A DNA stretch of 64,000 nucleotides, from positions 215,095 through 279,094 of the forward strand of contig NZ_OZ241836.1 in assembly GCF_965202595.1 (NCBI RefSeq). Direction: 5' to 3'. This document shows, one piece after another, positions 14,516 through 61,869 of the stretch. Within the stretch, counting starts at the first letter, position 1. Each line of letters opens with the position of its first letter. This stretch comes from Candidatus Poriferisocius sp. (GTDB taxonomy: Bacteria > Actinomycetota > Acidimicrobiia > Acidimicrobiales > Bin134). The translations under genes were made by a program, and so were the position numbers. The notes under the pieces are model-generated. The model worked only from the letters and a program-made list of their open reading frames with translations, was not told where the DNA came from and searched no databases.

Positions 14516-14648
14516 ATGACGCGGCCTGGTGGTGTTGATCTGTGGGGTTGTCGATGACGCGGCCTGGTGGTGTTGATGTGTGGGGTTGTCGATGACGCGG
14601 CCTGGTGGTGTTGATGTGTGGGGTTGTCGATGACGCGGCCTGGTGGTG
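14516..14648 (+). repeat. 38-bp tandem repeat (3 full units plus a partial one) encoding three ATGA-chained 13-codon mini-ORFs that lead into the next gene
   Basis: Mini-ORFs at 14516-14557, 14554-14595 and 14592-14633 (MTRPGGVD[L/V]WGCR*). Each stop overlaps the next ATG. The last ATG, at 14630, starts the downstream gene (MTRPGGDTGG...). Confidence 0.9.
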
Positions 14649-16501: not shown

Positions 16502-17389
16502 TTGATACCGCCTCGGGGCACTGGCGCAGCCTTGCGCTACGACACCGTCTCGTTCTTGTCCGATTACGGGCTGGGTGATGAATTCGTCGGGGTGGTGAAG
16601 TCGGTCATCCGGTCTCTGGCTCCCGAGGTGGTGGTGGTGGACATCACCCATGACATTGCTCCTCACGATGTCAGGGCCGGGGGCCTGGCCCTGGCTCGCA
16701 GCGCCCAGTACCTGGTACCCGGGGTGGTGCTGGCCGTGGTCGATCCCGGAGTGGGGGGCAAGCGGCGGGCCGTGGCGGTGGAAGTGGGAGGCGGAACCTC
16801 GGTGCTGGTCGGCCCCGACAACGGCCTGCTGGCCCCGGCGGTGGCCATGGTCGGGGGAGCGACCCGAGTGGTGGAGCTGACCGCCGAGAAATACCACCTT
16901 CGCTCTCCCGGCCCTACATTCGCGGGCCGCGACGTGTTCGCTCCGGTGGCCGCCCACCTGTGTTCGGGGGTCGGGCTCGAAGACGTGGGCACGCCGATCC
17001 CTATGCACTCCCTGACTCCGGGAGTCGTGCCGGTGAGCCGTACCGGCGGCGACCGGATCGATGCCGAGGTGCTTTGGATCGATCGATTCGGGAACTTGCA
17101 GCTCAACCTCGACCCCTCCGACATCGACCCTATGGGTGATGTGCTGAGGATCACCGCGGGCGGTGTGGGTCGCAACGCCCGCCGGGTCAACTGCTTCAGC
17201 GATGTGAGCACTGGTGATCTGGGGATACTGGTAGACTCCTACGGGTTGGCGGCCGTTGCGGTCAACCGAGGTTCGGCAGCGATGGAGTTGAACTGCAAGG
17301 AGGGTGACTCCATCATCGTCGAATCGGGGGAGTCCGCTTTGGCCACCCCGGTGCAACTTCAACCCAGACCCCCGGAGGTGCCGGCATGA
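16502..17389 (+). CDS. SAM hydroxide adenosyltransferase / SAM hydrolase family (DUF62)
   Basis: VSFLSDYGLGDEFVGVVKSVI, PGVVLAVVDPGVG, LVGPDNGLL and IDRFGNL match the fluorinase/chlorinase-like family. Confidence 0.75.
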   Translation: MIPPRGTGAALRYDTVSFLSDYGLGDEFVGVVKSVIRSLAPEVVVVDITHDIAPHDVRAGGLALARSAQYLVPGVVLAVVDPGVGGKRRAVAVEVGGGTSVLVGPDNGLLAPAVAMVGGATRVVELTAEKYHLRSPGPTFAGRDVFAPVAAHLCSGVGLEDVGTPIPMHSLTPGVVPVSRTGGDRIDAEVLWIDRFGNLQLNLDPSDIDPMGDVLRITAGGVGRNARRVNCFSDVSTGDLGILVDSYGLAAVAVNRGSAAMELNCKEGDSIIVESGESALATPVQLQPRPPEVPA

Positions 17390-17484
17390 GACCGGGAACC
17401 ACCATCGCTATCGCCGTGCCATGAGACCGGGAACCACCATCGTCATCGCCGTGCCATGAGACCGGGAACCACCATCGTCATCGC
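17386..17484 (+). repeat. 35-bp tandem repeat (2 units plus a partial one) encoding two ATGA-chained 12-codon mini-ORFs
   Basis: Mini-ORFs 17386-17424 (MRPGTTIAIAVP*) and 17421-17459 (MRPGTTIVIAVP*). The first ATG overlaps the upstream gene's stop (ATGA at 17386-17389). The last stop overlaps ATG 17456. Confidence 0.9.
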
Positions 17485-19459: not shown

Positions 19460-20434
19460 ATGCTGCGCGCCGCCACCCGAGGCAGCGCCTTGGCCCGCTG
19501 GCAAGCAGCCCACGTAGCCGATCTGCTGGGCGATGCCATCGACGTTCAACTGCTTGTTGTGACCACAACCGGCGACCGGCGAGCCGGCGAGCCCATATCG
19601 TCCATCGGCGGCAAGGGGGTGTTCGTCAAGGAGGTGCAGGCCGCGGTGCTGGACGGGCGGGCCGACCTGGCCGTCCACTCGGCCAAGGACCTGCCCGCCA
19701 CCACCCCCGATGGTCTGGTGGTGGCTGCGGTGCCCCCCCGGGCCGATCCTCGGGACGCGCTGGTGGGCAGCCGGTTGGACGACCTTCCCCCCAAAGGGTT
19801 GGTGGCCACCGGCTCGGCCCGCCGCCGGGTTCAGCTCCGCCGGCTCCGCCCCGATCTGCGGTTCGCCGAGTTGCGGGGCAACATTGACACCCGGCTGGCC
19901 AAGGTGCCCGACTACCACGCAGTGATCATGGCCAAAGCCGCCCTGGACCGGCTGGGCGAGCATCCGAGCGTTGTGGCGGCGCTGGGTCGGCGGGGCGAGC
20001 AACCGAGCGTTGTGGCCGCCCTGGAGCGGCTGGGCGAGCAACCGAACGTTGTGGATGTGTTGGGTCGGCGGCGCGAGCAGCCGGCCATCGTGGATGTGTT
20101 GGACTGCGAGGTTATGGTTCCTCAGGTGGGTCAAGGGGCCCTGGCGGTGGAGTGCCGGGAGGGCGATGATCGGGTCCGCTCCCTTCTGGCCGCCATCGAG
20201 GATCCAATGGCCCGGCGAGCGGTGGACGCCGAGCGGGCCTTTCTGTCCACCCTGGGCGGTGATTGCACCTTGCCCGCGGGAGCCCACGCCCGGATACTCG
20301 ACAACCGGGTGGTGATGCGGGCCGTGCTGGCCGGCGGTGTGGACGGCCGCTGCCACACCATGGTTGACGAGGGCAGCGACGGTGAATCCCTGGGCCAAGA
20401 CTTGGCCCGCCGGTTGCTTGCCGCGGCCCGATGA
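19460..20434 (+). CDS. hemC: Hydroxymethylbilane synthase (porphobilinogen deaminase) with a 39-bp x4 in-frame insertion
   Basis: LRAATRGSALARWQA, GKGVFVKE, RGNIDTRL and PQVGQGALAVECR motifs. ATG 19460 is preferred over the maximal ORF start at 19412. Confidence 0.9.
   Translation: MLRAATRGSALARWQAAHVADLLGDAIDVQLLVVTTTGDRRAGEPISSIGGKGVFVKEVQAAVLDGRADLAVHSAKDLPATTPDGLVVAAVPPRADPRDALVGSRLDDLPPKGLVATGSARRRVQLRRLRPDLRFAELRGNIDTRLAKVPDYHAVIMAKAALDRLGEHPSVVAALGRRGEQPSVVAALERLGEQPNVVDVLGRRREQPAIVDVLDCEVMVPQVGQGALAVECREGDDRVRSLLAAIEDPMARRAVDAERAFLSTLGGDCTLPAGAHARILDNRVVMRAVLAGGVDGRCHTMVDEGSDGESLGQDLARRLLAAAR
19955..20110 (+). repeat. In-frame 39-bp (13-aa) tandem repeat x4 inside hemC
   Basis: ggcgagca[t/a]ccgagcgttgtgg at 19955, 19994 and 20033, with a degenerate copy at 20072. 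Protein: GEHPSVVAALGRR GEQPSVVAALERL GEQPNVVDVLGRR REQPAIVDVLD. Confidence 0.9.
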
Positions 20435-20662
20435 CCGTTTATCCACGATGGCAGGGTTGATGGGCATGGCGTTGAACACTCGCCGGTTGCTTGCTGCGGC
20501 CCGATGACCGTTTATCCACGATGGCAGGGTTGATGGGCATGGCGTTGAACACTCGCCGGTTGCTTGCTGCGGCCCGATGACCGTTTATCCACGATGGCAG
20601 GGTTGATGGGCATGGCGTTGAACACCCGCCGGTTGCTTGCTGCGGCCCGATGACCGTTTACC
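20408..20662 (+). repeat. 73-bp tandem repeat (3 units plus a partial one) of the hemC-stop/cobA-start junction, encoding six chained mini-ORFs
   Basis: cgccggttgcttgc at 20408, 20481, 20554 and 20627. Mini-ORFs: 20431-20460, 20460-20507, 20504-20533, 20533-20580, 20577-20606, 20606-20653. They alternate between 9 aa (MTVYPRWQG) and 15 aa (MGMALNTRRLLAAAR), linked by ATGA and TGATG overlaps. Confidence 0.9.
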
Positions 20663-33728: not shown

Positions 33729-35104
33729 GCGCCAGCGCTCCCGGTGCTGTGGTTGATGCCGGTGCTGCCGGTGCCGGTGCTGTGATTGATGCCGGTGCTG
33801 CCGCCCCTGGCACCGTGGTTGATGCCGGTGCTGCCGGTGCCGCGGACACGGCCGAAGCCGTTTGCCGGCGGGAGGGTAGCGCGGTGCTCAGGATCGGTGA
33901 GGACGACGGTGAGCGTTTGGAGGCCGAGGCCGGCACCAGCGCCACCAGCATGGTCATGAACATGGGGCCCCAGCATCCCAGTACCCACGGTGTGCTGCGG
34001 CTCATGCTGGAGATGGATGGGGAGACCGTGATGCGGTCCAAGCCGGTCATCGGCTACCTCCACACCGGTATGGAGAAGACCGCCGAAACCCTCACCTACC
34101 TCCAGGGCCCCACCAACGTCACCCGCATGGATTACGCCTCGCCGCTGTTCAGCGAGCTGGCCTTCTCGATGGCCACCGAGGCGTTGCTGGGCCTGGAACT
34201 GCCCCCCCGAGCCGTATGGATCAGGATGCTCATGTGCGAGTTGAACCGCATCAGCTCGCACCTGCTGTTCCAGGCCACCAACGGCATGGACATCGGGGCG
34301 GTGTCGATGATGCTGTACGGCTGGCGGGAGCGGGAGGAGGTTCTCCGGCTGCTGGAGAAGATCACCGGGCTGCGGATGAACCACAACTACATCCGGCCCG
34401 GCGGGGTGGCTGCTGACCTTCCCGATGGCTGGCGGGACGGCGTGCTTTCCCTGATCGACACCCTGCCCGCCCGGCTCGACGAGTTCGACACCCTGCTCAC
34501 CGGCCAGCCCATCTACCGGCAAAGGTTGCAGGGCGTGGGGGTGATCAACCCCGCCGAGTGCCTGGCCCTGGGGGTGACCGGGCCCATCCTGCGCTCCACC
34601 GGCTACGCCTGGGACCTGCGGCGCGACATGCCCTATCTGGCCTATGACCAGGTGGATTTCGACGTGGTGGTGGGCACCTACGGGGACTGCTTCGACCGCT
34701 ACGCCATCCGGTTGAACGAGATAAGGGAATCGATTCGCATAGTGGCTCAGATCCTCGACCGGATGCCCGCCGGTGACTACCGGGTACAGGACAAGAAGGT
34801 CACCCCGCCGCCCCGGGCCCGTATTGATGAGTCGATGGAGGCCCTCATCCACCACTTCAAGATCTTCACCGAGGGGTTCAAGGTGCCGGCCGGTGAGGTG
34901 TATGCCGCCGTGGAATCCCCCCGGGGCGAGCTGGGCTGTTACATGGTGTCCGATGGCTCGGCGGTGCCCTACCGCATGCACATCCGCGGCCCCAGCTTCG
35001 TGAACCTGCAAACCCTGCCTCACCTGATGCGGGGGGGCCTGGTGGCCGACGCGGTGGCCATCATCTCCTCGGTGGATCCCATTATGGGAGAGGTGGACCG
35101 GTAG
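33725..35104 (+). CDS. nuoD: NADH-quinone oxidoreductase subunit D with a repeat-expanded N-terminus
   Basis: MNMGPQHPSTHGVLRL, and ESPRGELG near the C-terminus. Confidence 0.95.
   Translation: MSASAPGAVVDAGAAGAGAVIDAGAAAPGTVVDAGAAGAADTAEAVCRREGSAVLRIGEDDGERLEAEAGTSATSMVMNMGPQHPSTHGVLRLMLEMDGETVMRSKPVIGYLHTGMEKTAETLTYLQGPTNVTRMDYASPLFSELAFSMATEALLGLELPPRAVWIRMLMCELNRISSHLLFQATNGMDIGAVSMMLYGWREREEVLRLLEKITGLRMNHNYIRPGGVAADLPDGWRDGVLSLIDTLPARLDEFDTLLTGQPIYRQRLQGVGVINPAECLALGVTGPILRSTGYAWDLRRDMPYLAYDQVDFDVVVGTYGDCFDRYAIRLNEIRESIRIVAQILDRMPAGDYRVQDKKVTPPPRARIDESMEALIHHFKIFTEGFKVPAGEVYAAVESPRGELGCYMVSDGSAVPYRMHIRGPSFVNLQTLPHLMRGGLVADAVAIISSVDPIMGEVDR
33743..33841 (+). repeat. In-frame 33-bp tandem repeat x3 at the nuoD 5' end
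   Basis: ggtgctgtggttgatgccggtgctgccggtgcc at 33743, with copies at 33776 and 33809. Protein: GAVVDAGAAGA GAVIDAGAAAP GTVVDAGAAGA. Confidence 0.85.
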
Positions 35105-37166: not shown

Positions 37167-39790
37167 ACCGGCCGGAAACCGTGGTCAACATCACCGTCAA
37201 CAACCGGTCGGTGCAAGCCACCCCCGGAGAGTGGGTGATTGCCGCTGCCGAACGGGCCGGGGTGTACATCCCCCACTTTTGCTACCACCCCCGCATGAAC
37301 TCGGTGGGCATGTGCCGCATGTGCATCGTGGACATCGACACCGGGCGCGGCCCCGCCCTGCAACCCTCCTGCATGGTGCCGGTCAGCGAGGGAATGGTGG
37401 TGGACACCACCTCCGAGCAGACCCGCAAGGCTCAGGAGGGGGTGCTGGAGTTCCTGCTGTTGAACCACCCGCTGGACTGCCCGGTGTGCGACAAGGGCGG
37501 CGAGTGCCCCCTCCAGGACCAAACCATGTCCCACGGCCCCGGCGAGAGCCGCTTGGTGGAGGAGAAGCGCCATTTCGAGAAGCCCATCCCGGTGAACGAT
37601 CTGGTTTATCTGGACCGGGAGCGCTGCATCCTCTGCGATCGCTGCACCCGGTTTGCCGATGAGGTGGCTGGGGACCCGCTCATCACGTTCCAGGATCGGG
37701 GGGATCGGACTCAGGTCAACACCTTCCCCAATCTGCCCTTCTCCTCGTACTTCAGCGGCAACACCGTGCAGATCTGCCCGGTGGGGGCCCTCACCGCTCG
37801 ACCCTACCGGTTCAAGGCCCGCCCCTGGGACCTCACCGAGGTGGAGTCCACCTTCCCCAACCCCATGGGTGATCGGGTGGTGGTGCAGGCCTCTCGCGAC
37901 CAGGTGCTGCGCTACCAGGGAGTGGACAGCGACGCGGTCAACTGGGGGTGGCTCACCGACAAGGATCGGTTCGCATTCGAAGCTCTTGATCGGGGGCCAC
38001 GGCTGACGGTGCCGCTGGTTCGGGGCTCCTCGATGAGTGGCTCCGACCCCGGCGGCCAGGAGCTGGTGGAGTCCTCCTGGCATCAAGCCCTCAACCGGGC
38101 CGCGGAGGCCATCCGGGCTGCGGTGGCCGACCGGGGTCCGGGGTCGGTGGCGATACTGGGTGGGGCCCGCTCGACCAACGAGGACCAGTACGCCTGGGCT
38201 CGCCTGGCCAAGGGGGTTATCGGCACCGACCATGTTGACGCTCAGCTCGACGACGGCCTGCCCGCCGATGTCGTGCTCGGCCTGCCTCGGGCCACCATCA
38301 ATCGGGCCTGCACCCCCGGCGGCACCGTGATCTTGATGGCACCCGATCCCAAGGAGGAACAAGGCACCCTCTACCTGCGGCTCCGCCACGCCGTGACCAA
38401 CGACGGCGTGCAGCTCATCGAGCTGACCCCCCGAGCCACCGGTTTGAGCCATCTCGCCGCCCACCGGCTGCACCACCGCCCCGGTGAGGTTGCCGCGGTG
38501 GCGGCGGCCCTGGTGGGCGGCGATATCGATGTCGGACCCGCCGGTGAGATCGGCGGGGTTCCCGGTCCGGTGCTGGCCGCTGCGGCGGCCGGGCTGGTGG
38601 CCCGAGCCGATCAACCCATAACCGTGATCCTGGGTCGCCCTTCGCTGGCCGAGTCGGCCGCCCCTACGGTGGAGGCCGCCGCCGAACTGTCCAAGCTGGC
38701 CCGGCTGCTCGCCGCGGGCGGGCGACCCGGCATGAGTTTCCTGCCCGTACTGCACCGGGGCAACGTGTTCGGCGCGCTCGACATGGGTCTGGCTCCCGGT
38801 CTGCTGCCGGGCCGGGTGTCCCGGGCCGATGGTGGCTCGGCGGTGGCCGAGTTTTGGGGTTCGTTACCGGCGGACCCGGGCGCTGGGGCCGGCATCGCCA
38901 CCGGCGCTGCCACCGGCGCTGGGGCTGGTGCTGTCACCGGCGCTGCCACCGGCGCTGCCACCGGCGCTGGGGCCGGCGGGATCCTGGAAGCGGCCGCAGG
39001 GGGACGAATCGAGGTGCTGATCCTTTTGGGGGCCGATCCTTTGGGCGACGTTCCCAACGCCAAGCTGGCCGAGACCGCTCTGGCCGGGGTGGGCACCATC
39101 ATTGCCTCCGACTTGTTCCTGAACCCCTCCGCGGCCCGGGCCGACATCGTTTTCCCGGTCACGGCGTTCGGTGAGCATCGGGGTACCCACACCAACCTGG
39201 AGGGTCGGATCACCCGGCAGCGCCAGATTGTCACCCCTCCGGGTACGGCCCGGACCAACTGGTCCATCGCCACCGATCTGGCTCGGTTGCTGGGCACCGA
39301 TTTCGGGTTTGCCGACCCCGAGGCGGTGTGGTCCGAGATCACCCGGGTGGCCCCGTCGCACCGGGACCTGACCCTGGAGGCCGTGGAAGCCGAAACCGAT
39401 GGCGTGGTGGTTGCCGGTAGCTCCATCGTGTTCACCCCGCCCGGCGAACCGGTGCCGGTACCCCCGGCCGATGCCTACGGCCTGCGGTTGGTGTCGTCGC
39501 GCCGCATGTACGACCGGGGCACGCTGCTTCAGCACTCCCCCTCCCTGGCCGGTTTGGCTCCCACGGCGGTGCTGGCCGTGAACCCCTCCGACTTTCAGGG
39601 TGTCGGGGTGGATCCCGGTACCGAGGTTCAGGTCGTCTCCCCGGTCGGTGAGATGACCGTGCCGCTGGTGGTCGACCCCGGTGTGCCCCGAGGGACCGCA
39701 GCTTTTGGCTACAACCACCCCGACCGCGATGTACGAGAACTCATCGACCCGGCCGCGGTGGTTACCGATGTGAGGATTCAGACCCGATGA
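37163..39790 (+). CDS. nuoG: NADH-quinone oxidoreductase subunit G
   Basis: N-terminal 2Fe-2S/4Fe-4S Cys clusters (CYHPRMNSVGMCRMC, HPLDCPVCDKGGECPLQD, CILCDRC) and a molybdopterin-like domain. A GA/T-rich low-complexity insertion lies around 38870-38990. Confidence 0.95.
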   Translation: MNRPETVVNITVNNRSVQATPGEWVIAAAERAGVYIPHFCYHPRMNSVGMCRMCIVDIDTGRGPALQPSCMVPVSEGMVVDTTSEQTRKAQEGVLEFLLLNHPLDCPVCDKGGECPLQDQTMSHGPGESRLVEEKRHFEKPIPVNDLVYLDRERCILCDRCTRFADEVAGDPLITFQDRGDRTQVNTFPNLPFSSYFSGNTVQICPVGALTARPYRFKARPWDLTEVESTFPNPMGDRVVVQASRDQVLRYQGVDSDAVNWGWLTDKDRFAFEALDRGPRLTVPLVRGSSMSGSDPGGQELVESSWHQALNRAAEAIRAAVADRGPGSVAILGGARSTNEDQYAWARLAKGVIGTDHVDAQLDDGLPADVVLGLPRATINRACTPGGTVILMAPDPKEEQGTLYLRLRHAVTNDGVQLIELTPRATGLSHLAAHRLHHRPGEVAAVAAALVGGDIDVGPAGEIGGVPGPVLAAAAAGLVARADQPITVILGRPSLAESAAPTVEAAAELSKLARLLAAGGRPGMSFLPVLHRGNVFGALDMGLAPGLLPGRVSRADGGSAVAEFWGSLPADPGAGAGIATGAATGAGAGAVTGAATGAATGAGAGGILEAAAGGRIEVLILLGADPLGDVPNAKLAETALAGVGTIIASDLFLNPSAARADIVFPVTAFGEHRGTHTNLEGRITRQRQIVTPPGTARTNWSIATDLARLLGTDFGFADPEAVWSEITRVAPSHRDLTLEAVEAETDGVVVAGSSIVFTPPGEPVPVPPADAYGLRLVSSRRMYDRGTLLQHSPSLAGLAPTAVLAVNPSDFQGVGVDPGTEVQVVSPVGEMTVPLVVDPGVPRGTAAFGYNHPDRDVRELIDPAAVVTDVRIQTR

Positions 39791-39840
39791 CGGCTGACCC
39801 GGCTGCGGTGGTTACCGATGTGAGGATCCGGACCCGATGA
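39746..39840 (+). repeat. 50-bp duplication of the nuoG/nuoH junction with a 17-codon bridging mini-ORF
   Basis: gacccggc.gcggtggttaccgatgtgaggat.c.gacccgatga at 39746 and 39796. Mini-ORF 39787-39840 (MTADPAAVVTDVRIRTR*). ATGA overlaps at both ends. Confidence 0.9.
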
Positions 39841-41063
39841 ACGTCGCCCCGGCGCTTTTGGGTCCGACCGTGTTCGGCCTCGACCCGCTCTACATCGGGG
39901 GGGTGGGCCTGGCCGAGGTTCTCATCACCCTGCTCAAGGTGGGGGTGGCTTTTGCTCTTCTGCTGATGGCGGTCATGCTGATGATCTGGTTCGAACGCAA
40001 GTTGATCGGCGACATGCAGAACCGTATCGGGCCTGCGCTGGCCGGGCCGTTCGGCATCTTCCAGACCCTGGCCGACGGGATCAAGCTGTTCTTCAAGGAG
40101 GACCTGATCCCCGACCGCTCCGACCGGTTGGTGTTCAAGCTGGCCCCCTACCTGTCGCTGGTGCCTGCCTTTTTGGTGTTCGCCGTGATCCCCGTGGGCG
40201 GCGATTTCAGCGGTGGCAACGGGCGGGTCAGCCTGTTCGGTCACGAGACCTTCCTCCAGGTGTCCGACCCGCCGGTGGGCATCCTGCTGGTGCTGGCCAT
40301 GTCGTCGGTGGCCGTTTACGGGGTGATGCTGGCCGGGTGGTCGTCGGGCTCCAAGTATCCCCTGCTGGCGTCGGTGCGGGCCTCGGCCCAGATGGTTTCC
40401 TACGAGGCCGCACTGGGTTTGTCGCTGGCCGCGGTGCTGCTGAAATCGGGCAGCCTGTCCACCCACCTGATCGTTTCCGAGCAGTCGGTGTGGAACTGGA
40501 ACCTGTGGGTTACATGGGTGGTGCCCATGGTCGTCTTCTTGATCGCTGCCACCGCCGAACTGAACCGGCCCCCCTTCGACCTGGTGGAGGCCGAGCAGGA
40601 GCTGGTCGGCGGCTTCCACACCGAGTACAGCTCCATCCGGTTCGCCCTGTTCTACCTGGCCGAGTTCATGAACACCATCACGATGTCGGCCATCGTGGTG
40701 ACCCTGTTCCTGGGCGGGCCCAACGGTCCCGACTTCACCTCGGTGGGCTGGCTGTCGGGGTTGCTGTGGTTCTTGGGCAAGCTGCTGATCCTGCTGTTCA
40801 CCTTTGTGTGGTTGCGGGCCACCCTGCCCCGCTTCCGCTACGACCAGCTCATGGACCTGGGTTGGAAATTGCTCATCCCCCTGTCGCTGGGGTGGCTGCT
40901 GGTGCTGGCCTCCTACGACGTGGCCGGGGATCGGGGCTGGAACCGCTTCGCCACCGTGCTGGCGGTGATGGCGGTGATGGCCGCTCTGGCCGGGTTGTTG
41001 AGCCTGGCCCTGCGAAATGCCCGCCGCCACCGGGAGTTGGATCCCCAAGGTGGTTTTGCCTGA
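39837..41063 (+). CDS. nuoH: NADH-quinone oxidoreductase subunit H
   Basis: WFERKLIGDMQNRIGP and EAEQELVGGFHTEYS motifs. Confidence 0.95.
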   Translation: MNVAPALLGPTVFGLDPLYIGGVGLAEVLITLLKVGVAFALLLMAVMLMIWFERKLIGDMQNRIGPALAGPFGIFQTLADGIKLFFKEDLIPDRSDRLVFKLAPYLSLVPAFLVFAVIPVGGDFSGGNGRVSLFGHETFLQVSDPPVGILLVLAMSSVAVYGVMLAGWSSGSKYPLLASVRASAQMVSYEAALGLSLAAVLLKSGSLSTHLIVSEQSVWNWNLWVTWVVPMVVFLIAATAELNRPPFDLVEAEQELVGGFHTEYSSIRFALFYLAEFMNTITMSAIVVTLFLGGPNGPDFTSVGWLSGLLWFLGKLLILLFTFVWLRATLPRFRYDQLMDLGWKLLIPLSLGWLLVLASYDVAGDRGWNRFATVLAVMAVMAALAGLLSLALRNARRHRELDPQGGFA

Positions 41064-41130
41064 TGGGATACCTTGAGTTCACCCGATGGTGGCTGGATCC
41101 CCAAGGTGGTTTTGCCTGATGGGATACCTT
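41039..41130 (+). repeat. 56-bp duplication of the nuoH/nuoI junction with an 18-codon bridging mini-ORF
   Basis: ggatccccaaggtggttttgcctgatgggatacctt at 41039 and 41095. Mini-ORF 41063-41119 (MGYLEFTRWWLDPQGGFA*). TGATG overlaps at both ends. Confidence 0.9.
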
Positions 41131-41775
41131 CAGGGCTTTGCCGTCACCCTTCGCAAGTTGTTCAAGGGCACCGAGACCGGTCGGGTGGTCACCAGCCAGT
41201 ACCCCGACGAGAAGCGTCCCAAACCCGAGCGCTTCCACGGCCGCCACGTGCTGAACCGCTACGAGGACGGCATGGAGAAGTGCATCGGGTGCGAGCTGTG
41301 CGCCGGGGTCTGCCCGGCCCGGTGCATTTATGTTCGGGGGGCCGACAACCAGCCCGATGATCCGGTTTCGCCCGGCGAGCGATACGGCTATGTCTACGAG
41401 ATCAACTACCTGCGGTGCATCCACTGCGACCTGTGCGTGGAGGCCTGCCCCACCGAGGCCATAACCGAGTCGAAACTGTTCGAGTTCTCGTTCACCGACC
41501 GGGCCGATGCCATCTACACCAAGGACGAGCTGGTGGTGGATGACGATGGCCGCCCCCAGCAGCTTCCCTGGGAACACTGGAATCCCGGTGACGATCAGCA
41601 CACCTCGGCCTGGGTCCGGGCCACATCCCCCTCGGGGCGGGCCGACTACGAGGGTCGGGTGGCCTGGTCGGGCGAGCTGGGCTACGGCATCCGCGCCCCC
41701 GAGCGGGGTCAGTCGGCCGGCGACGAGTCCCCCGCCGATTATGACCAGGAAGATCTTGGCGGGGGTCACCACTGA
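41119..41775 (+). CDS. nuoI: NADH-quinone oxidoreductase subunit I
   Basis: CIGCELCAGVCP and CIHCDLCVEACP motifs. The start is at the second junction copy (MGYLQGFAVTLRK). Confidence 0.95.
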   Translation: MGYLQGFAVTLRKLFKGTETGRVVTSQYPDEKRPKPERFHGRHVLNRYEDGMEKCIGCELCAGVCPARCIYVRGADNQPDDPVSPGERYGYVYEINYLRCIHCDLCVEACPTEAITESKLFEFSFTDRADAIYTKDELVVDDDGRPQQLPWEHWNPGDDQHTSAWVRATSPSGRADYEGRVAWSGELGYGIRAPERGQSAGDESPADYDQEDLGGGHH

Positions 41776-41818
41776 TGGAGACAGCGGTTCGCAAAGCCCA
41801 TGGCGGGGGTCACCACTG

Positions 41819-41826
<8 letters not shown>
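41758..41826 (+). repeat. 44-bp duplication of the nuoI/nuoJ junction with a 14-codon bridging mini-ORF
   Basis: ggcgggggtcaccactgatggagac at 41758 and 41802. Mini-ORF 41775-41819 (METAVRKAHGGGHH*). Confidence 0.9.
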
Positions 41827-42356
<530 letters not shown>

Positions 42357-42370
<14 letters not shown>

Positions 42371-42461
42371 TGGTCACCGCATTCTGGTATGTCCGTTGCC
42401 GGCCACCGCGGGGGCTGCGACCGGCCCCCGGTGAAGACTGATGGTCACCGCATCCTGGTAT
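42357..42461 (+). repeat. 71-bp duplication of the nuoJ/nuoK junction with a 23-codon bridging mini-ORF
   Basis: ccggtgaagactgatggtcaccgcat.ctggtat at 42357 and 42428. Mini-ORF 42370-42441 (MVTAFWYVRCRPPRGLRPAPGED*). Confidence 0.9.
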
Positions 42462-42743
42462 CTGGTGCTGGCTGGCGCGCTGTTCACCATCGGGGCGGTG
42501 GGCCTGCTGGTGCGGCGGAACCCGCTGATCATGTTCATGTGCGTGGAGCTGATGCTCAACGCGGTCAACCTCACCTTCATCACCTTCGGGCGGGAGCTGA
42601 ATGACATCGGGGGGCAGGTGTCGGTGTTCTTCGTGCTGGTGGTGGCCGCGGCCGAGGTGGTGGTGGGTCTGGCCATCGTGGTGGCCATCAAGCGCCACCA
42701 ACCCCGGGCCACCGCCGACGACCTTGCGGCCCTGAAGGGTTAG
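42441..42743 (+). CDS. nuoK: NADH-quinone oxidoreductase subunit K
   Basis: 100 aa: LVLAGALFTIGAVGLLVRRNPLIMFMCVELMLNAVNL. Confidence 0.95.
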   Translation: MVTASWYLVLAGALFTIGAVGLLVRRNPLIMFMCVELMLNAVNLTFITFGRELNDIGGQVSVFFVLVVAAAEVVVGLAIVVAIKRHQPRATADDLAALKG

Positions 42744-42843
42744 TGGGTACATGAGCATGCTCGTGGATGCTGAAGGGTTAGTGGGTACATGAGCACCCTC
42801 GTGGATGCTGAAGGGTTAGTGGGTACATGAGCACGCTCGTGGA
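42732..42843 (+). repeat. 38-bp tandem repeat x3 of the nuoK/nuoL junction with two chained 13-codon mini-ORFs
   Basis: ctgaagggttagtgggtacatgagca..ctcgtggat at 42732, 42770 and 42808. Mini-ORFs 42751-42792 (MSMLVDAEGLVGT*) and 42789-42830 (MSTLVDAEGLVGT*), ATGA-chained to the nuoL ATG at 42827. Confidence 0.9.
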
Positions 42844-44722
42844 TCTGGTGTGGCTGATCCCCGCCTTCCCGCTGGCCGGGGTTCTGATCCTCGTGGTTTC
42901 GGGGCGCAGGCTGGGCGAACCCCGGGCCGGCTGGCTGGCCACCGCCATGATGGGCGGATCGTTCGTGACCACGCTGCTGGTGTTCATCGGGCTCCTGGGC
43001 CACGACGGTGAGGAGCGTCAAAAGGTGCTCACCCTGTTCGAGTGGGTACCCGCGGGGCGGCTGGCGGTGGACATCGGCTTTCTGGCCGACCCGCTGGCCA
43101 TCACCATGGCCTTGTTCGTGACCGGGGTCGGAGCTCTCATCCACCTTTACTCCATCGGCTACATGCACGGCGACGAGGGGTTCTCCCGGTTCTTCGTGTA
43201 CCTCAACCTGTTCGCCTTCTCCATGCTCATGCTGGTGCTGGGCGACAACCTCCTGCTCACCTTCCTGGGCTGGGAGGGGGTGGGGGCCTGCTCCTACCTG
43301 CTCATCTCGTTCTGGTTCACCGACGAAACCAACGCCACCGCGGGCAAGAAGGCGTTCGTCACCAACCGGGTGGGCGACTGGGGCTTCTTGGTGGCCATGT
43401 TCCTGGCGTTCTTGACCTTCGGGTCGCTCCAGTACGGCGAGATCTTCTACGACCTGGAGTCCAACGGGGTGGCCGCTGGCACCGCGTCGGCCATCGTGGT
43501 GCTGCTGCTGGTGGGCGCGGCCGGCAAATCAGCCCAGTTCCCGCTGCACATCTGGCTGCCCGATGCCATGGCCGGCCCCACCCCGGTGTCGGCGCTCATT
43601 CACGCCGCCACCATGGTCACCGCCGGGGTTTACCTGCTGATCCGCATGAACCCGATCATTGCCGAGGCCCACGGGTGGGTGCCCGACCTGATCATGTGGT
43701 TGGGTCTGGGGACCGCGCTGATGGCCGCCACCATCGCGGTGGCCCAGAACGACATCAAGAAGGTGCTGGCCTACTCCACGGTCAGCCAGCTCGGGTTCAT
43801 GTTCGTGGCGGTGGGGTCGGGGGCCTACGTGGCCGCCATCTTCCACATGGTAACCCACGCCTTTTTCAAGGCCCTCCTGTTCCTGGGGGCCGGGTCGGTG
43901 ATCCACGCCATGCACGGCGATCAGGATCTTCGCCGCTACGGCGGTCTGGCCCGATTTCTGCCCGTTACCTCGATGACCTTCGTGGCCGGCTGGCTGGCCA
44001 TTGCCGGCGTTCCCCCGTTCTCCGGTTTCTGGTCCAAGGACGAGATCCTGGTTTACGCCTATGGCGAGAACAAGCTGCTGTGGCTGCTGCTGCTGGTGAC
44101 CGCGGTGCTCACCGCCTTCTACATGACCCGGCTGGTGCTCATGACGTTCTTCGGCCCCCGCCGCTGGGCGGGCGAAGCAGCCGATCCCCACGAGTCGCCG
44201 TGGACGATGACCGCTCCCCTGGTGGTTCTGGCCGCCCTGGCCGTGGTGGCCGGGGTGGTGAACCTGCCGTTTGCCTCCAGCACCCACTTCTTGGGGAACT
44301 GGCTGGATCCGGCCTTTTTCGGCAATGCCTCTCACCTGAGCCTCGGCGGGGGCACCAAATGGGTGCTGGCCGCCGTTGCCATCGTGGGCAGCCTTCTGGG
44401 AGTCTCGGCCGGGGCCGCGGTGTACGCCCGGCGCCGGGTGGATCCGGCTCGCCTCGAGCACCCCTTCCTGGCCCGGGCCTGGCGCATCGATGAGCTGGTC
44501 ACCGCCTTCATGGGTGGTCCCGGCCGCCGGGCGTTCGAGCGCACCACCCGGTTTGATGAGCAGGTGGTGGACGGCGCGGTCAACGCCACCGGCGCTTTGA
44601 TCCGCCGGGCCGGAACCAAACTGCGGGTGTCGCAAACCGGCCTGGTGCGCAGTTACGCCCTGGGTATCGCCGCCGGGGCAGTGGCACTTTTGGCCTGGTT
44701 CCTGTCGCGGGCGGGGTTGTGA
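42827..44722 (+). CDS. nuoL: NADH-quinone oxidoreductase subunit L
   Basis: 631 aa, with antiporter-like motifs (WEGVGACSYLLISFW, KSAQFPLHIWLPDAMAGPTPVSALIHAATMVTAG). Confidence 0.95.
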   Translation: MSTLVDLVWLIPAFPLAGVLILVVSGRRLGEPRAGWLATAMMGGSFVTTLLVFIGLLGHDGEERQKVLTLFEWVPAGRLAVDIGFLADPLAITMALFVTGVGALIHLYSIGYMHGDEGFSRFFVYLNLFAFSMLMLVLGDNLLLTFLGWEGVGACSYLLISFWFTDETNATAGKKAFVTNRVGDWGFLVAMFLAFLTFGSLQYGEIFYDLESNGVAAGTASAIVVLLLVGAAGKSAQFPLHIWLPDAMAGPTPVSALIHAATMVTAGVYLLIRMNPIIAEAHGWVPDLIMWLGLGTALMAATIAVAQNDIKKVLAYSTVSQLGFMFVAVGSGAYVAAIFHMVTHAFFKALLFLGAGSVIHAMHGDQDLRRYGGLARFLPVTSMTFVAGWLAIAGVPPFSGFWSKDEILVYAYGENKLLWLLLLVTAVLTAFYMTRLVLMTFFGPRRWAGEAADPHESPWTMTAPLVVLAALAVVAGVVNLPFASSTHFLGNWLDPAFFGNASHLSLGGGTKWVLAAVAIVGSLLGVSAGAAVYARRRVDPARLEHPFLARAWRIDELVTAFMGGPGRRAFERTTRFDEQVVDGAVNATGALIRRAGTKLRVSQTGLVRSYALGIAAGAVALLAWFLSRAGL

Positions 44723-44795
44723 TGTTCCGTAGCCGATCATCTGGCCCATTCCGGCAACTTTTGGCCTGGTTCCTGTCGCGGGCGGGGTTGTGATG
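44686..44795 (+). repeat. 71-bp duplication of the nuoL/nuoM junction with a 23-codon bridging mini-ORF
   Basis: acttttggcctggttcctgtcgcgggcggggttgtgatg at 44686 and 44757. Mini-ORF 44722-44793 (MFRSRSSGPFRQLLAWFLSRAGL*). Confidence 0.9.
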
Positions 44796-54692: not shown

Positions 54693-55322
54693 ATGTCGCT
54701 TCTTGTTTCGGCCCGCGCCCACTTGGTGGACTACAGGCACCGCCTGCTGCGTTACGGCGGGGCATCGGCGGTGGGGGTGGTGTTGGGGCAGACCATCCTG
54801 CGAGTGTGCTACGACCTGCTGGGATGGTCGGCGTTGGTGGCCAACCTGGTGGCGTTCCTTATAGCCAACATCCCCGTGTACCACCTGAACCGGTCATGGG
54901 TGTGGGACCGATCGGGTCCCAGTAGCTGGAGGCGCGAGGTGCTGCCCTTCTGGCTGGTTTCCTTCGCGGGGCTGGCCCTGTCGTCGCTTGCCGTGGGTTT
55001 GATCGACCGGGTGACCGGCAACGGCTGGTTGATCACCGTGGCATCGGTGGGGGCGTTCGGCACGGTATGGCTGGTGAAGTACGCGGTGTGCGACCAGTAC
55101 CTGTTCGGCCCCCCAGGCCAAAGCGGCGACCATGACGGTCCCAATCGGGAGATGGCAGGGGATCACAACGATCCCAATCGGGAGATGGCTGGGGATCACG
55201 ACAGCTCCAATCGGGGAATGGCTGGGGATCACGACAGCTCCAACCGGGGGATGGCAGGGGATCACAACAGCTCCAATCGGGGAATGGCAGGCGATGGAGC
55301 CCGACCGGCGGGCGTTCGCTGA
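54693..55322 (+). CDS. GtrA-family membrane protein with a repeat-expanded C-terminal tail
   Basis: GASAVGVVLGQ, FLIANIPVYHLNRSWVW and VKYAVCDQYLF fit the GtrA pattern. The tail is GDH[DN]..NR[EG]MA x5. Confidence 0.75.
   Translation: MSLLVSARAHLVDYRHRLLRYGGASAVGVVLGQTILRVCYDLLGWSALVANLVAFLIANIPVYHLNRSWVWDRSGPSSWRREVLPFWLVSFAGLALSSLAVGLIDRVTGNGWLITVASVGAFGTVWLVKYAVCDQYLFGPPGQSGDHDGPNREMAGDHNDPNREMAGDHDSSNRGMAGDHDSSNRGMAGDHNSSNRGMAGDGARPAGVR
55125..55295 (+). repeat. In-frame 33-bp tandem repeat x5 at the GtrA 3' end, abutting the next gene's start
   Basis: Units encode GDHDGPNREMA, GDHNDPNREMA, GDHDSSNRGMA, GDHDSSNRGMA and GDHNSSNRGMA. Confidence 0.9.
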
Positions 55323-60483: not shown

Positions 60484-60647
60484 CTGCTGTCCAGCAGTAC
60501 CCGGTAGTGCTCCGCTGGGGAGGAGGGCCGTATTCTCACCGTCACGCGTGCCATTCGTTGAGCAGTACCCGGTAGTGCTCCGCTGGGGATGCGGTTTGGG
60601 TTCTCACCGTCACGCGTGCCATTCGTTGAGCAGTACCCGGTAGTGCT
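60477..60647 (-). repeat. 68-bp tandem repeat (2 units plus a partial one) of the GT4-stop / methyltransferase-start junction, with two chained mini-ORFs
   Basis: The tca (stop) recurs at 60610 and 60542. Minus-strand mini-ORFs: 60613-60542 (VTVRTQTASPAEHYRVLLNEWHA*) and 60545-60477 (VTVRIRPSSPAEHYRVLLDSRC*). They are GTGA-chained, and the last overlaps the methyltransferase GTG by 7 nt. Confidence 0.85.
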
Positions 60648-61869
60648 CAACGGTCTTTTCCGCAGTGTGGTGCCAACTCCAGCGGCTCCTCACCCGTTCC
60701 CGCCCGGCTTGGCCTATCCGAGCGGCCATGGCCGGATTGTCCAGAATCCGAACGAGCGCCCCGGCCAATGCCTCGCTGTCTGCGGGGGGCACCAGCAGGC
60801 AGGTCTCGCCGCTGGTGCCGGCCACCTCGGGCAGCGCCCCGCCGGTGGTGGCCACCAGCGGTGTGGCGCTGGACATGGTTTCGATGGCCGGCAGCGAGAA
60901 CCCCTCGTACAGCGAGGGCACCACTGCCACTGAGCTGGTGGCGTACAGCTCCACAATGCGGTCATCGGGCACCCCCGACACGAACTCCACCACCTCGCCC
61001 AGTCCCAGGCTGTTGATGGTGGAGGAGGATGCACCCCCCTCGCGGGGTTTTCCGATCACGATCAGCCGCACATCCCGCTCGGTGCGCAACTTGGCCACCG
61101 CCTCCAGCAGGTAGCGCAGGCCCTTCATGGGCACATCCGCGCTGGCGGTGGTGATGATCTGCCCCGGCCGGCGGTCCACGCCGGGAAGCGGGCGGAACAG
61201 CTCGGTATCCACCCCCACCGGTACCACATGCATCCGGCCATGGGGTACCCGCTGGTCCCGGGCTATGTCGTCGAGGGACGACTCCGACACGGTGATGATG
61301 CGCCGCAAGCGGCGGGCCACCCGGGCCTGCATCCGGATGAAGGAGTACCAGCGTCGCTTGCCGAAACGATCCATCATCCCCCGGGCGTGCTCGAGCTCCA
61401 GTTGGCGGTCCACGGTGATGGGATGGTGGATGGTGGCCAGTACCGGTAGCCCGTCCCGCTCCATGCCCAAAAGCCCGTAGCCCAATGACTGGTTGTCGTG
61501 CACGATATCGAATTCCCCGGCTCGGGAGCGCAGTGCCTGCCAGGCCCGGAGCGAGAAGGCCAGCGGTTCGGAGAAGGCTCCGGTCATGAACGAGCCCACC
61601 TCGGCGGCATCGGCCCACGATTTGATCTCCCAGAATCCGGGTAACCGGCCCGGGTAGGCATCGTTGAAGATATCCAGGCTGGGAAGCCGGTGAAGCGGTA
61701 CCCGAGGGTCCAGAACCGGGTAGGGCTGCCCGCTCAGCACCTCCACGTGGTGCCCCAGATCGGTCAGCGCCCGACTCAGGTGATGGACGTACACGCCCTG
61801 GCCCCCGCAATGGGGTTTGCCCCGGTACGAAAGCAGGGCAATCCTGAGGGATCGATCCTCCGGGGCCAT
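60610..61869 (-). CDS. GT4-family glycosyltransferase
   Basis: IALLSYRGKPHCGGQGVYVHHLSRAL, and PSLYEGFSLPAIETMSSATPLV (EX7E region). Confidence 0.85.
   Translation of the reverse strand: MAPEDRSLRIALLSYRGKPHCGGQGVYVHHLSRALTDLGHHVEVLSGQPYPVLDPRVPLHRLPSLDIFNDAYPGRLPGFWEIKSWADAAEVGSFMTGAFSEPLAFSLRAWQALRSRAGEFDIVHDNQSLGYGLLGMERDGLPVLATIHHPITVDRQLELEHARGMMDRFGKRRWYSFIRMQARVARRLRRIITVSESSLDDIARDQRVPHGRMHVVPVGVDTELFRPLPGVDRRPGQIITTASADVPMKGLRYLLEAVAKLRTERDVRLIVIGKPREGGASSSTINSLGLGEVVEFVSGVPDDRIVELYATSSVAVVPSLYEGFSLPAIETMSSATPLVATTGGALPEVAGTSGETCLLVPPADSEALAGALVRILDNPAMAARIGQAGRERVRSRWSWHHTAEKTVEHYRVLLNEWHA

Follow-up and report, generated by a model that had tools for sequence, protein, structure and literature searches.

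A probably recent tandem triplication at the nuoK/nuoL junction of an acidimicrobial sponge symbiont that leaves both flanking proteins intact

Introduction

The window analysed here, a 64,000-nucleotide stretch of DNA from Candidatus Poriferisocius sp., includes an essential 14-gene respiratory operon (nuo) in which six consecutive gene junctions are bridged by short open reading frames. At one of them, between nuoK and nuoL, a 38-bp unit is found three times in tandem and creates two 13-codon frames between the genes. The question raised by this locus is where the extra copies came from, and how they can be carried at the start of a respiratory gene. We consider it likely that the junction was triplicated in tandem recently and within this lineage alone, by a process of short duplication with unusual activity in this genome and in its sister species; the array would persist since it is harmless, with ribosomes probably relayed through the small frames. 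On the evidence, the array is best seen as a local duplication that has passed a selection filter, with no dedicated element involved.

Results

Structure of the nuoK/nuoL array

The features of the junction are the following.

42441..42743, + strand, nuoK (NADH-quinone oxidoreductase chain 4L), from the ORF list; Pfam PF00420 Oxidored_q2, E = 5e-28
42732..42769, + strand, repeat copy 1, holding the genuine nuoK end (TRF, unit layout)
42734..42739, again at 42772-42777 and 42810-42815, + strand, putative SD-like GAAGGG (direct reading)
42751..42792, + strand, mini-ORF 1, MSMLVDAEGLVGT and stop, 13 codons, TGA overlapping ATG 42789
42770..42807, + strand, repeat copy 2 (extra), from TRF; missing in 12 single-copy congeners and in the sister genome G008
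42789..42830, + strand, mini-ORF 2, MSTLVDAEGLVGT and stop, 13 codons, TGA overlapping the nuoL ATG 42827
42808..42844, + strand, repeat copy 3, holding the genuine nuoL start (TRF, unit layout)
42827..44722, + strand, nuoL (chain 5), 631 aa, from the ORF list; Pfam PF00662 Proton_antipo_N and PF00361 Proton_antipo_M

TRF described positions 42732-42844 as a 38-bp unit in 3.0 copies with 96% matches and a score of 212, and direct reading of the sequence located ATG codons at 42751, 42789 and 42827. The three-copy array noticed in the sequence-only reading was thus borne out by both approaches, and direct reading likewise confirmed that the nuoK TAG (42741-42743) is followed after 7 nt by ATG 42751. 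Each unit holds the last three nuoK codons with the TAG, the SD-like GAAGGG, the 7-nt spacer, and an ATG with five nuoL codons. The first GAAGGG (42734..42739) lies 11 nt ahead of ATG 42751, and relatives have GAGGGGA at this position. Only three substitutions are present in the whole array, and the copies differ at just two adjacent unit positions, such that codon 3 reads ATG, ACC and ACG.

The TGA that closes each mini-ORF overlaps with the following ATG, giving ATGA stop/start overlaps at 42789-42792 and 42827-42830, while the nuoK TAG is followed by the 7-nt gap. The sequence-only reading, in which two 13-codon ORFs were chained through ATGA to the nuoL start at 42827, was correct in this respect. 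It was also correct in stating that they use the nuoK 3' end in a different frame: the copied nuoK tail is read with a shift of one base, so that the copied TAG is out of frame. The NuoL N-terminus, MSTLVDLVWLIP, agrees with the N-termini of relatives, and nuoG, nuoH, nuoJ, nuoK, nuoL and nuoM around the array are supported by Pfam. Outside the array, the 38-bp unit was not found by blastn anywhere in the 3.1-Mb genome, and with a single copy at the junction of congeners the repeat cannot be put down to chance. The RNA fold of the array was unremarkable (z = -0.17) and there was no Rfam match near threshold, and a structured RNA at this junction was rejected on these grounds.

Other junctions of the nuo operon

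A tie between K/L and the other nuo junctions, implied in the earlier description, held up, as the six distal junctions from G/H to L/M are fully bridged by mini-ORFs. All six carry gapless chains of chimeric frames, in each of which the N-terminus of the downstream gene is joined to the C-terminus of the upstream gene.

G/H, bridging ORF 39787-39840, start-to-start distance 50 nt
H/I, bridging ORF 41063-41119, start-to-start distance 56 nt
I/J, bridging ORF 41775-41819, start-to-start distance 44 nt
J/K, bridging ORF 42370-42441, start-to-start distance 71 nt
K/L, bridging ORFs 42751-42792 and 42789-42830, start-to-start distance 38 nt (twice)
L/M, bridging ORF 44719-44793, start-to-start distance 71 nt

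Every one of these distances is 2 mod 3. The G/H, H/I, I/J, J/K and L/M junctions each have a single bridging mini-ORF of 14-24 codons, with a stop/start overlap at both ends. Nearly all congeners are without the H/I (+56), J/K (+71) and K/L (+76) inserts. Three near-identical tandem copies are visible at K/L only, with about two at G/H, and the K/L array is the youngest of the six.

A separate array is present at nuoC/nuoD (33741-33842, 33 bp x 3.1; about 2.3 copies in G008). It is in frame with nuoD, and a start at the upstream ATG 33725 would add a repeated N-terminal extension of the VVDAGAAGA type, which places it in the 'fusion' class.

Origin of the array and the junction in relatives

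The junction was compared in 19 congeners, by genome search, and in further public relatives. The single-copy form, consisting of TAG, 7 nt and ATGAGCAC, was found in twelve congeners read at sequence level. Interval length indicates a single copy in the sister genome G008 too, whose nuoL is about 91% identical, and in a few relatives the spacer measures 9-16 nt and an ordinary SD is present. Given the twelve single-copy congeners and the single-copy G008, the K/L array is a young, lineage-specific local duplication. Copy number differs between these close genomes in the way of a VNTR or minisatellite, with three copies in the source genome (G000) and one in G008, and the triplication postdates their split.

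The base preceding CTGAAGG is C in the source genome and G in relatives, where it belongs to a GCG or GTG codon. If this base was G at the time of the event, the duplication would have been blunt and of exactly 38 nt; the extra G at the joint is compatible with such a duplication given an ancestral GCG codon, as in relatives. Boundary microhomology at K/L amounts to at most 3 nt (CTG) and possibly to 0.

Insertions at the same place were also found in other genomes. L083 (JAJEEH010000285.1; L083:556-600) has one extra 38-nt unit of unrelated sequence, which forms a 13-codon ORF with an ATGA ending. An older insert of 47-48 nt is common to G010, G023, G018, G011 and L081, and forms a 15-16-codon ORF that begins 6-12 nt past the nuoK TAG and has an ATGA ending on nuoL. 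A length change of 1 nt has put the peptide of the G011 insert into another frame, which closes with a new TGA directly against the nuoL ATG. Identity among the K/L inserts of the congeners is only 70-94%, but their start, length class and stop position have been kept. Inserts that form mini-ORFs ahead of nuoL also occur in L081, L087 and L002-L005, where the frames end on or against the nuoL ATG. In the more distant L089 (L089:520-600, JAPOTT010000045.1; 74% NuoL identity) nuoK and nuoL are separated by a 94-nt spacer with two copies of a 15-nt direct repeat, gatcaggcttgcgat, and no obvious relay ORF was seen in this spacer. An exact-protein look-up gave no other assembly with an identical NuoK, and the duplication-specific joint was not found in the independent public genome and metagenome contigs scanned.

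Tandem arrays across the genome

The source genome (3.1 Mb, 63% GC, two contigs) contains 1068 TRF arrays, 783 of which have a period of at least 20 bp, corresponding to 252 per Mb. The arrays are located on the 3.04-Mb bacterial chromosome and show a mean match of about 90%. When units of 28-80 bp were compared, the unit was unique to its own locus in 624 of 635 arrays (98%); together with the single-locus K/L unit, this led to the rejection of a mobile or interspersed element.

G008 has 391 arrays per Mb and shares an upper cut-off near 74 bp. A stricter count gave 175-350 arrays per Mb for G000 and G008; the 17 further congeners sampled had 0-36 per Mb and the same-order genome G030 had none. 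Eight of the repeat-poor congeners are represented by complete genomes. The burst is restricted to G000 and G008 (20 other genomes sampled: 19 congeners and one of the same order). Six sites could be aligned with G008, of which three are single-copy there, including K/L and G/H, and three are shared with differing copy numbers.

The window holds further high-identity arrays at or near gene ends, namely 14516-14648 (38 bp x 3.5), 17385-17484 (35 bp x 2.9), 20408-20660 (73 bp x 3.5), 55141-55295 (33 bp x 4.7) and 60493-60648 (68 bp x 2.3).

Unit lengths are quantised at 33-38 and 63-74 bp, and the ranges of 19-29 bp and above 74 bp are nearly empty. The spectrum was obtained twice, with TRF and with an independent exact-periodicity count. 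Perfect duplications of at least two copies in the source genome are distributed as follows.

Unit 24-29 bp, 5 loci
Unit 30-32 bp, 14 loci
Unit 33-38 bp, 145 loci
Unit 39-50 bp, 59 loci
Unit 57-62 bp, 3 loci
Unit 63-74 bp, 30 loci
Unit 75-89 bp, 0 loci

The whole of G000 and the G008 samples L023, L024 and L041-L060 displayed a block at 30-39 bp, with its mode at 33-38, and a minor bump at 47-50 bp. That the units of about 70 bp are dimers of units of about 35 bp was considered and holds for only 12% of them. In clean young arrays the microhomology at the boundaries is 0-4 bp, with a distribution flatter than chance. Many arrays run on into older decayed copies, identity past the first mismatch being 47% versus 26% in the control. 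Non-integer copy numbers were discarded as a mechanistic clue, as they are explained by perfect cores within such older decayed copies.

The gap at 24-29 bp, the modes at 33-38 and 63-74 bp, the abrupt end of the spectrum and the low proportion of dimers suggest a physical ruler of about 35 and 70 nt. The G000/G008 lineage might run a length-measuring duplication process of a kind not described in bacteria, a proposal that is made tentatively and regarded as rather improbable. The classical site sizes of SSB are about 35 and 65 nt, and it can be speculated that flaps or gaps of single-stranded DNA held under one SSB tetramer, in its ~35- or 65-nt mode, are spared by flap nucleases.

Repair and replication genes

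Gene content was compared between the repeat-rich G000 and G008 and the repeat-poor G001, G010 and G015. Among 14 repair and replication families, no difference tracking the repeats was detected in these five genomes. All five possess the PolA 5'-nuclease and a stand-alone FEN, SSB, NucS, ExoVII and DinB, as well as DnaE1, RNase HI, RNase HII and UvrD-type helicases. Ku and reverse transcriptase were not found in any of the five. DHHA1 matches occurred in four of them (none in G008), confined to long frames of about 870-940 aa that we take to be possibly AlaRS. Alignments showed that the catalytic motifs of the flap nucleases and the SSB tip are intact in the repeat-rich genomes.

An adjacent pair of a second IMS (ImuB-like) and a second DnaE-type polymerase (DnaE2-like) is encoded in G001 (G001:C1:34235-37358) and G010 (G010:C1:270509-273634). 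Loss of this pair was examined as a cause and rejected: it is missing from G000 and G008, yet also from the repeat-poor G015, and its loss therefore does not cleanly track repeat density.

In the source genome, ssb (G000:C1:2719621-2719926) encodes a glycine/arginine-rich linker longer than in relatives, and in G008 the open frame upstream of polA (G008:C1:280091-281800) has a PEAPANPATPDAPE-type low-complexity repeat immediately ahead of the conserved start. Both features could have arisen in frame through the duplication process that made the arrays.

Selection on arrays at gene boundaries

The 994 arrays with units of at least 15 bp were classified against our own rough gene calls (2240 genes, 72% of the genome), and unit lengths were sorted by their remainder modulo 3 (0/1/2).

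Inside genes, n = 305, 290/7/8 (95% in frame)
Over the stop codon only, n = 225, 82/65/78 (uniform, p = 0.35)
Over the start codon only, n = 91, 44/8/39
Spanning a co-directional stop and start junction, n = 80, 22/10/48

The stop-only class served as the mutational null, from which the junction class differs (chi-square p = 2e-4). Stop codons are covered four times more than under random placement, and arrays inside genes occur at half the expected frequency. Mutational targeting of gene ends is not needed to account for this, since by our reasoning the ratio of stop-covering to intergenic arrays fits a uniform input followed by selection.

The fate of the extra start codons was assessed by a simulation in which start-spanning arrays were collapsed to one copy and duplications were drawn from the neutral length spectrum. 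The frame opened by the extra start ends in a 4-nt overlap of the ATGA type in 25 of 53 junction arrays (47%), against an expected fraction of 0.21 (p = 2e-5). Out-of-frame overrun of the real start is depleted about three-fold (6/53 against 0.31 expected, p = 7e-4), and in-frame fusion was found in 9/53 against 0.32 expected. Start-only arrays behave in a similar way. Thus, decoy starts that overrun or extend the real gene are removed. Within the harmless outcomes there is no significant preference for the tight ATGA overlap relative to a stop that comes early or leaves a gap (p ~0.15), so that avoidance of interference is backed more firmly than a positive need for a relay; a positive requirement for ribosome hand-over is plausible. 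The phase filter is statistical, a strong genome-wide bias and no rule, with in-frame fusion or overrun making up 28% of the junction class and 35% of the start-only class.

Persistence of the array and translation of nuoL

At K/L, the unit length of 38 nt leaves a remainder of 2 modulo 3 and nuoL begins with ATGA, so that an extra ATG opens a 13-codon frame that stops on the next ATG. With the frames stopping there, ribosomes would not run out of frame over the start of nuoL, nor would NuoL gain an N-terminal extension; both proteins are left intact, which is probably why the array persists.

In the explanation favoured here, local head-to-tail copies would be made genome-wide, mostly of 33-38 or 63-74 bp and with 0-4 bp of boundary microhomology, and selection would retain the harmless ones. 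Each K/L unit would then be a complete re-initiation module that offers an SD-like site together with a stop and an ATGA-type start. After the end of nuoK, ribosomes would most likely resume 7 nt further on at 42751, the spacing of the ancestral junction; they would stop at 42789 and begin again there, do so once more at 42827, and from that last start translate nuoL, with the mini-ORF peptides as by-products. De novo initiation at each SD-like site may be an alternative step. From the sequence, we infer both that the mini-ORFs are translated and that ribosomes are handed over between them.

The alternative that survives best, although we think it unlikely, is that the array is neutral junk: nuoL would initiate from its own SD-like site, the mini-ORFs would be little translated or untranslated, and the phase bias would reflect only the harm done by decoy starts. 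The presence of the SD-like GAAGGG in every unit, the lack of a significant preference for tight overlaps among harmless outcomes and the unremarkable fold of the array RNA are in line with this view. It does not account well for the first mini-ORF start holding the ancestral 7-nt distance from the nuoK stop exactly, for the older K/L inserts that maintain start, length class and stop position despite sequence drift, or for the gapless bridging of six consecutive nuo junctions.

Much less probable is an adaptive tuner, in which the copy number at the junction would set the ratio of NuoL-N to NuoA-K in the manner of a VNTR-type rheostat. Array copy numbers do differ between G000 and G008, and loss of ribosomes at each extra re-initiation step is plausible by inference. 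Such arrays, however, also occur at hundreds of unrelated genes and over bare stop codons, where there is nothing to be tuned, and the subunits of complex I are required in fixed stoichiometry.

Slightly less credible still is an artefact of assembly or polishing on a genome that is truly single-copy, even though the array is present in one assembly only. Copy-specific substitutions (ATG, ACC, ACG) are not expected of artefactual copies, arrays of this class are also present in the independently assembled G008, in part at orthologous sites with other copy numbers, and decayed duplications of this type are seen at neighbouring junctions.

A mobile or interspersed element of the MIRU type, inserted at the start codon of nuoL, would have a matching architecture, since in MIRUs a small ORF is coupled to the following start at -4 (PMC12548453). 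This reading can be dismissed, as the unit is local nuoK tail plus nuoL head with no other genomic copy and 98% of the arrays are locus-specific.

Discussion

A local tandem triplication passed by the selection filter, with a probable ribosome relay, is the reading retained here, and its interest extends beyond the single junction. Hundreds of random local duplications in one lineage amount to a natural experiment on the changes tolerated at gene starts. The survivors at operon junctions are those in which a decoy start leads to a frame ending on the real start, and on a population scale this supports the view that stop/start geometry matters for translational coupling. The quantised lengths in two sister species point to a possibly new mutational mechanism; if the ruler is real, the junction arrays represent a natural mutagenesis screen, indicating that operon genes of this organism do not tolerate decoy starts that fail to terminate on the real start. 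For annotation, such arrays yield spurious small ORFs and ambiguous start codons.

A full-text search under the organism name gave unrelated coral papers only, and the array was compared with systems known from other hosts. Coupling by termination and re-initiation at overlapping stop and start codons (ATGA, TGATG) is reviewed in PMC12548453. Both mini-ORF junctions at K/L are ATGA overlaps, and the first step is the ancestral 7-nt gap. The coupled partners are usually two real genes, whereas in the presumed coupling here two meaningless 13-codon frames lie between them.

MIRUs (mycobacterial interspersed repetitive units; Supply et al. 1997) are described in the review PMC12548453 as tandem units of tens of bases at the intercistronic junctions of operons, each containing a small ORF with a 4-nt overlap between its stop and the next start, an arrangement believed to preserve translational coupling; their sequences belong to one family with copies at numerous loci, and mobility is presumed. 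The K/L array resembles them in having tandem units at an intercistronic junction and small ORFs overlapping the flanking stop and start. It differs in that the arrays are built from their own local gene ends, without a shared family sequence, and in that the host is an acidimicrobial sponge symbiont and not a mycobacterium.

Microhomology-mediated tandem duplication (MTD), as presented in a preprint (bioRxiv 10.64898/2026.02.28.708716) and a PNAS article (PMC13167724), involves local single-copy segments that are duplicated head to tail, may expand into arrays, and are purged from coding sequence by purifying selection. K/L likewise is a head-to-tail duplication of a segment that was single-copy in the ancestor. 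Clean arrays throughout the genome have 0-4 bp of microhomology, and K/L itself has at most 3 nt and possibly none. The density here is extreme in comparison, with 252-391 arrays per Mb in one lineage only, and the quantised 33-38/63-74 bp spectrum goes unmentioned in the passages of the preprint that were searched (10.64898/2026.02.28.708716).

Borg repeats, according to PMC9879509, comprise many locus-specific and fast-evolving arrays, with units always divisible by three within ORFs and not so in intergenic regions; some arrays begin within gene ends, and a related host genome is nearly free of repeats. They are perfect and A-rich, and are carried by an archaeal extrachromosomal element (PMC9879509). 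The arrays described here are similarly locus-specific, with 290 of 305 in-gene units divisible by 3 as opposed to 82/65/78 in the stop-only class. They differ in being on a bacterial chromosome, in their identity of about 90%, in the 33-38/63-74 bp spectrum, and in a start-codon phase rule, of which there is none in the passages of PMC9879509 that were searched. Host, density, length quantisation and the start-codon phase filter thus set the K/L array apart from MIRU, MTD and Borg repeats.
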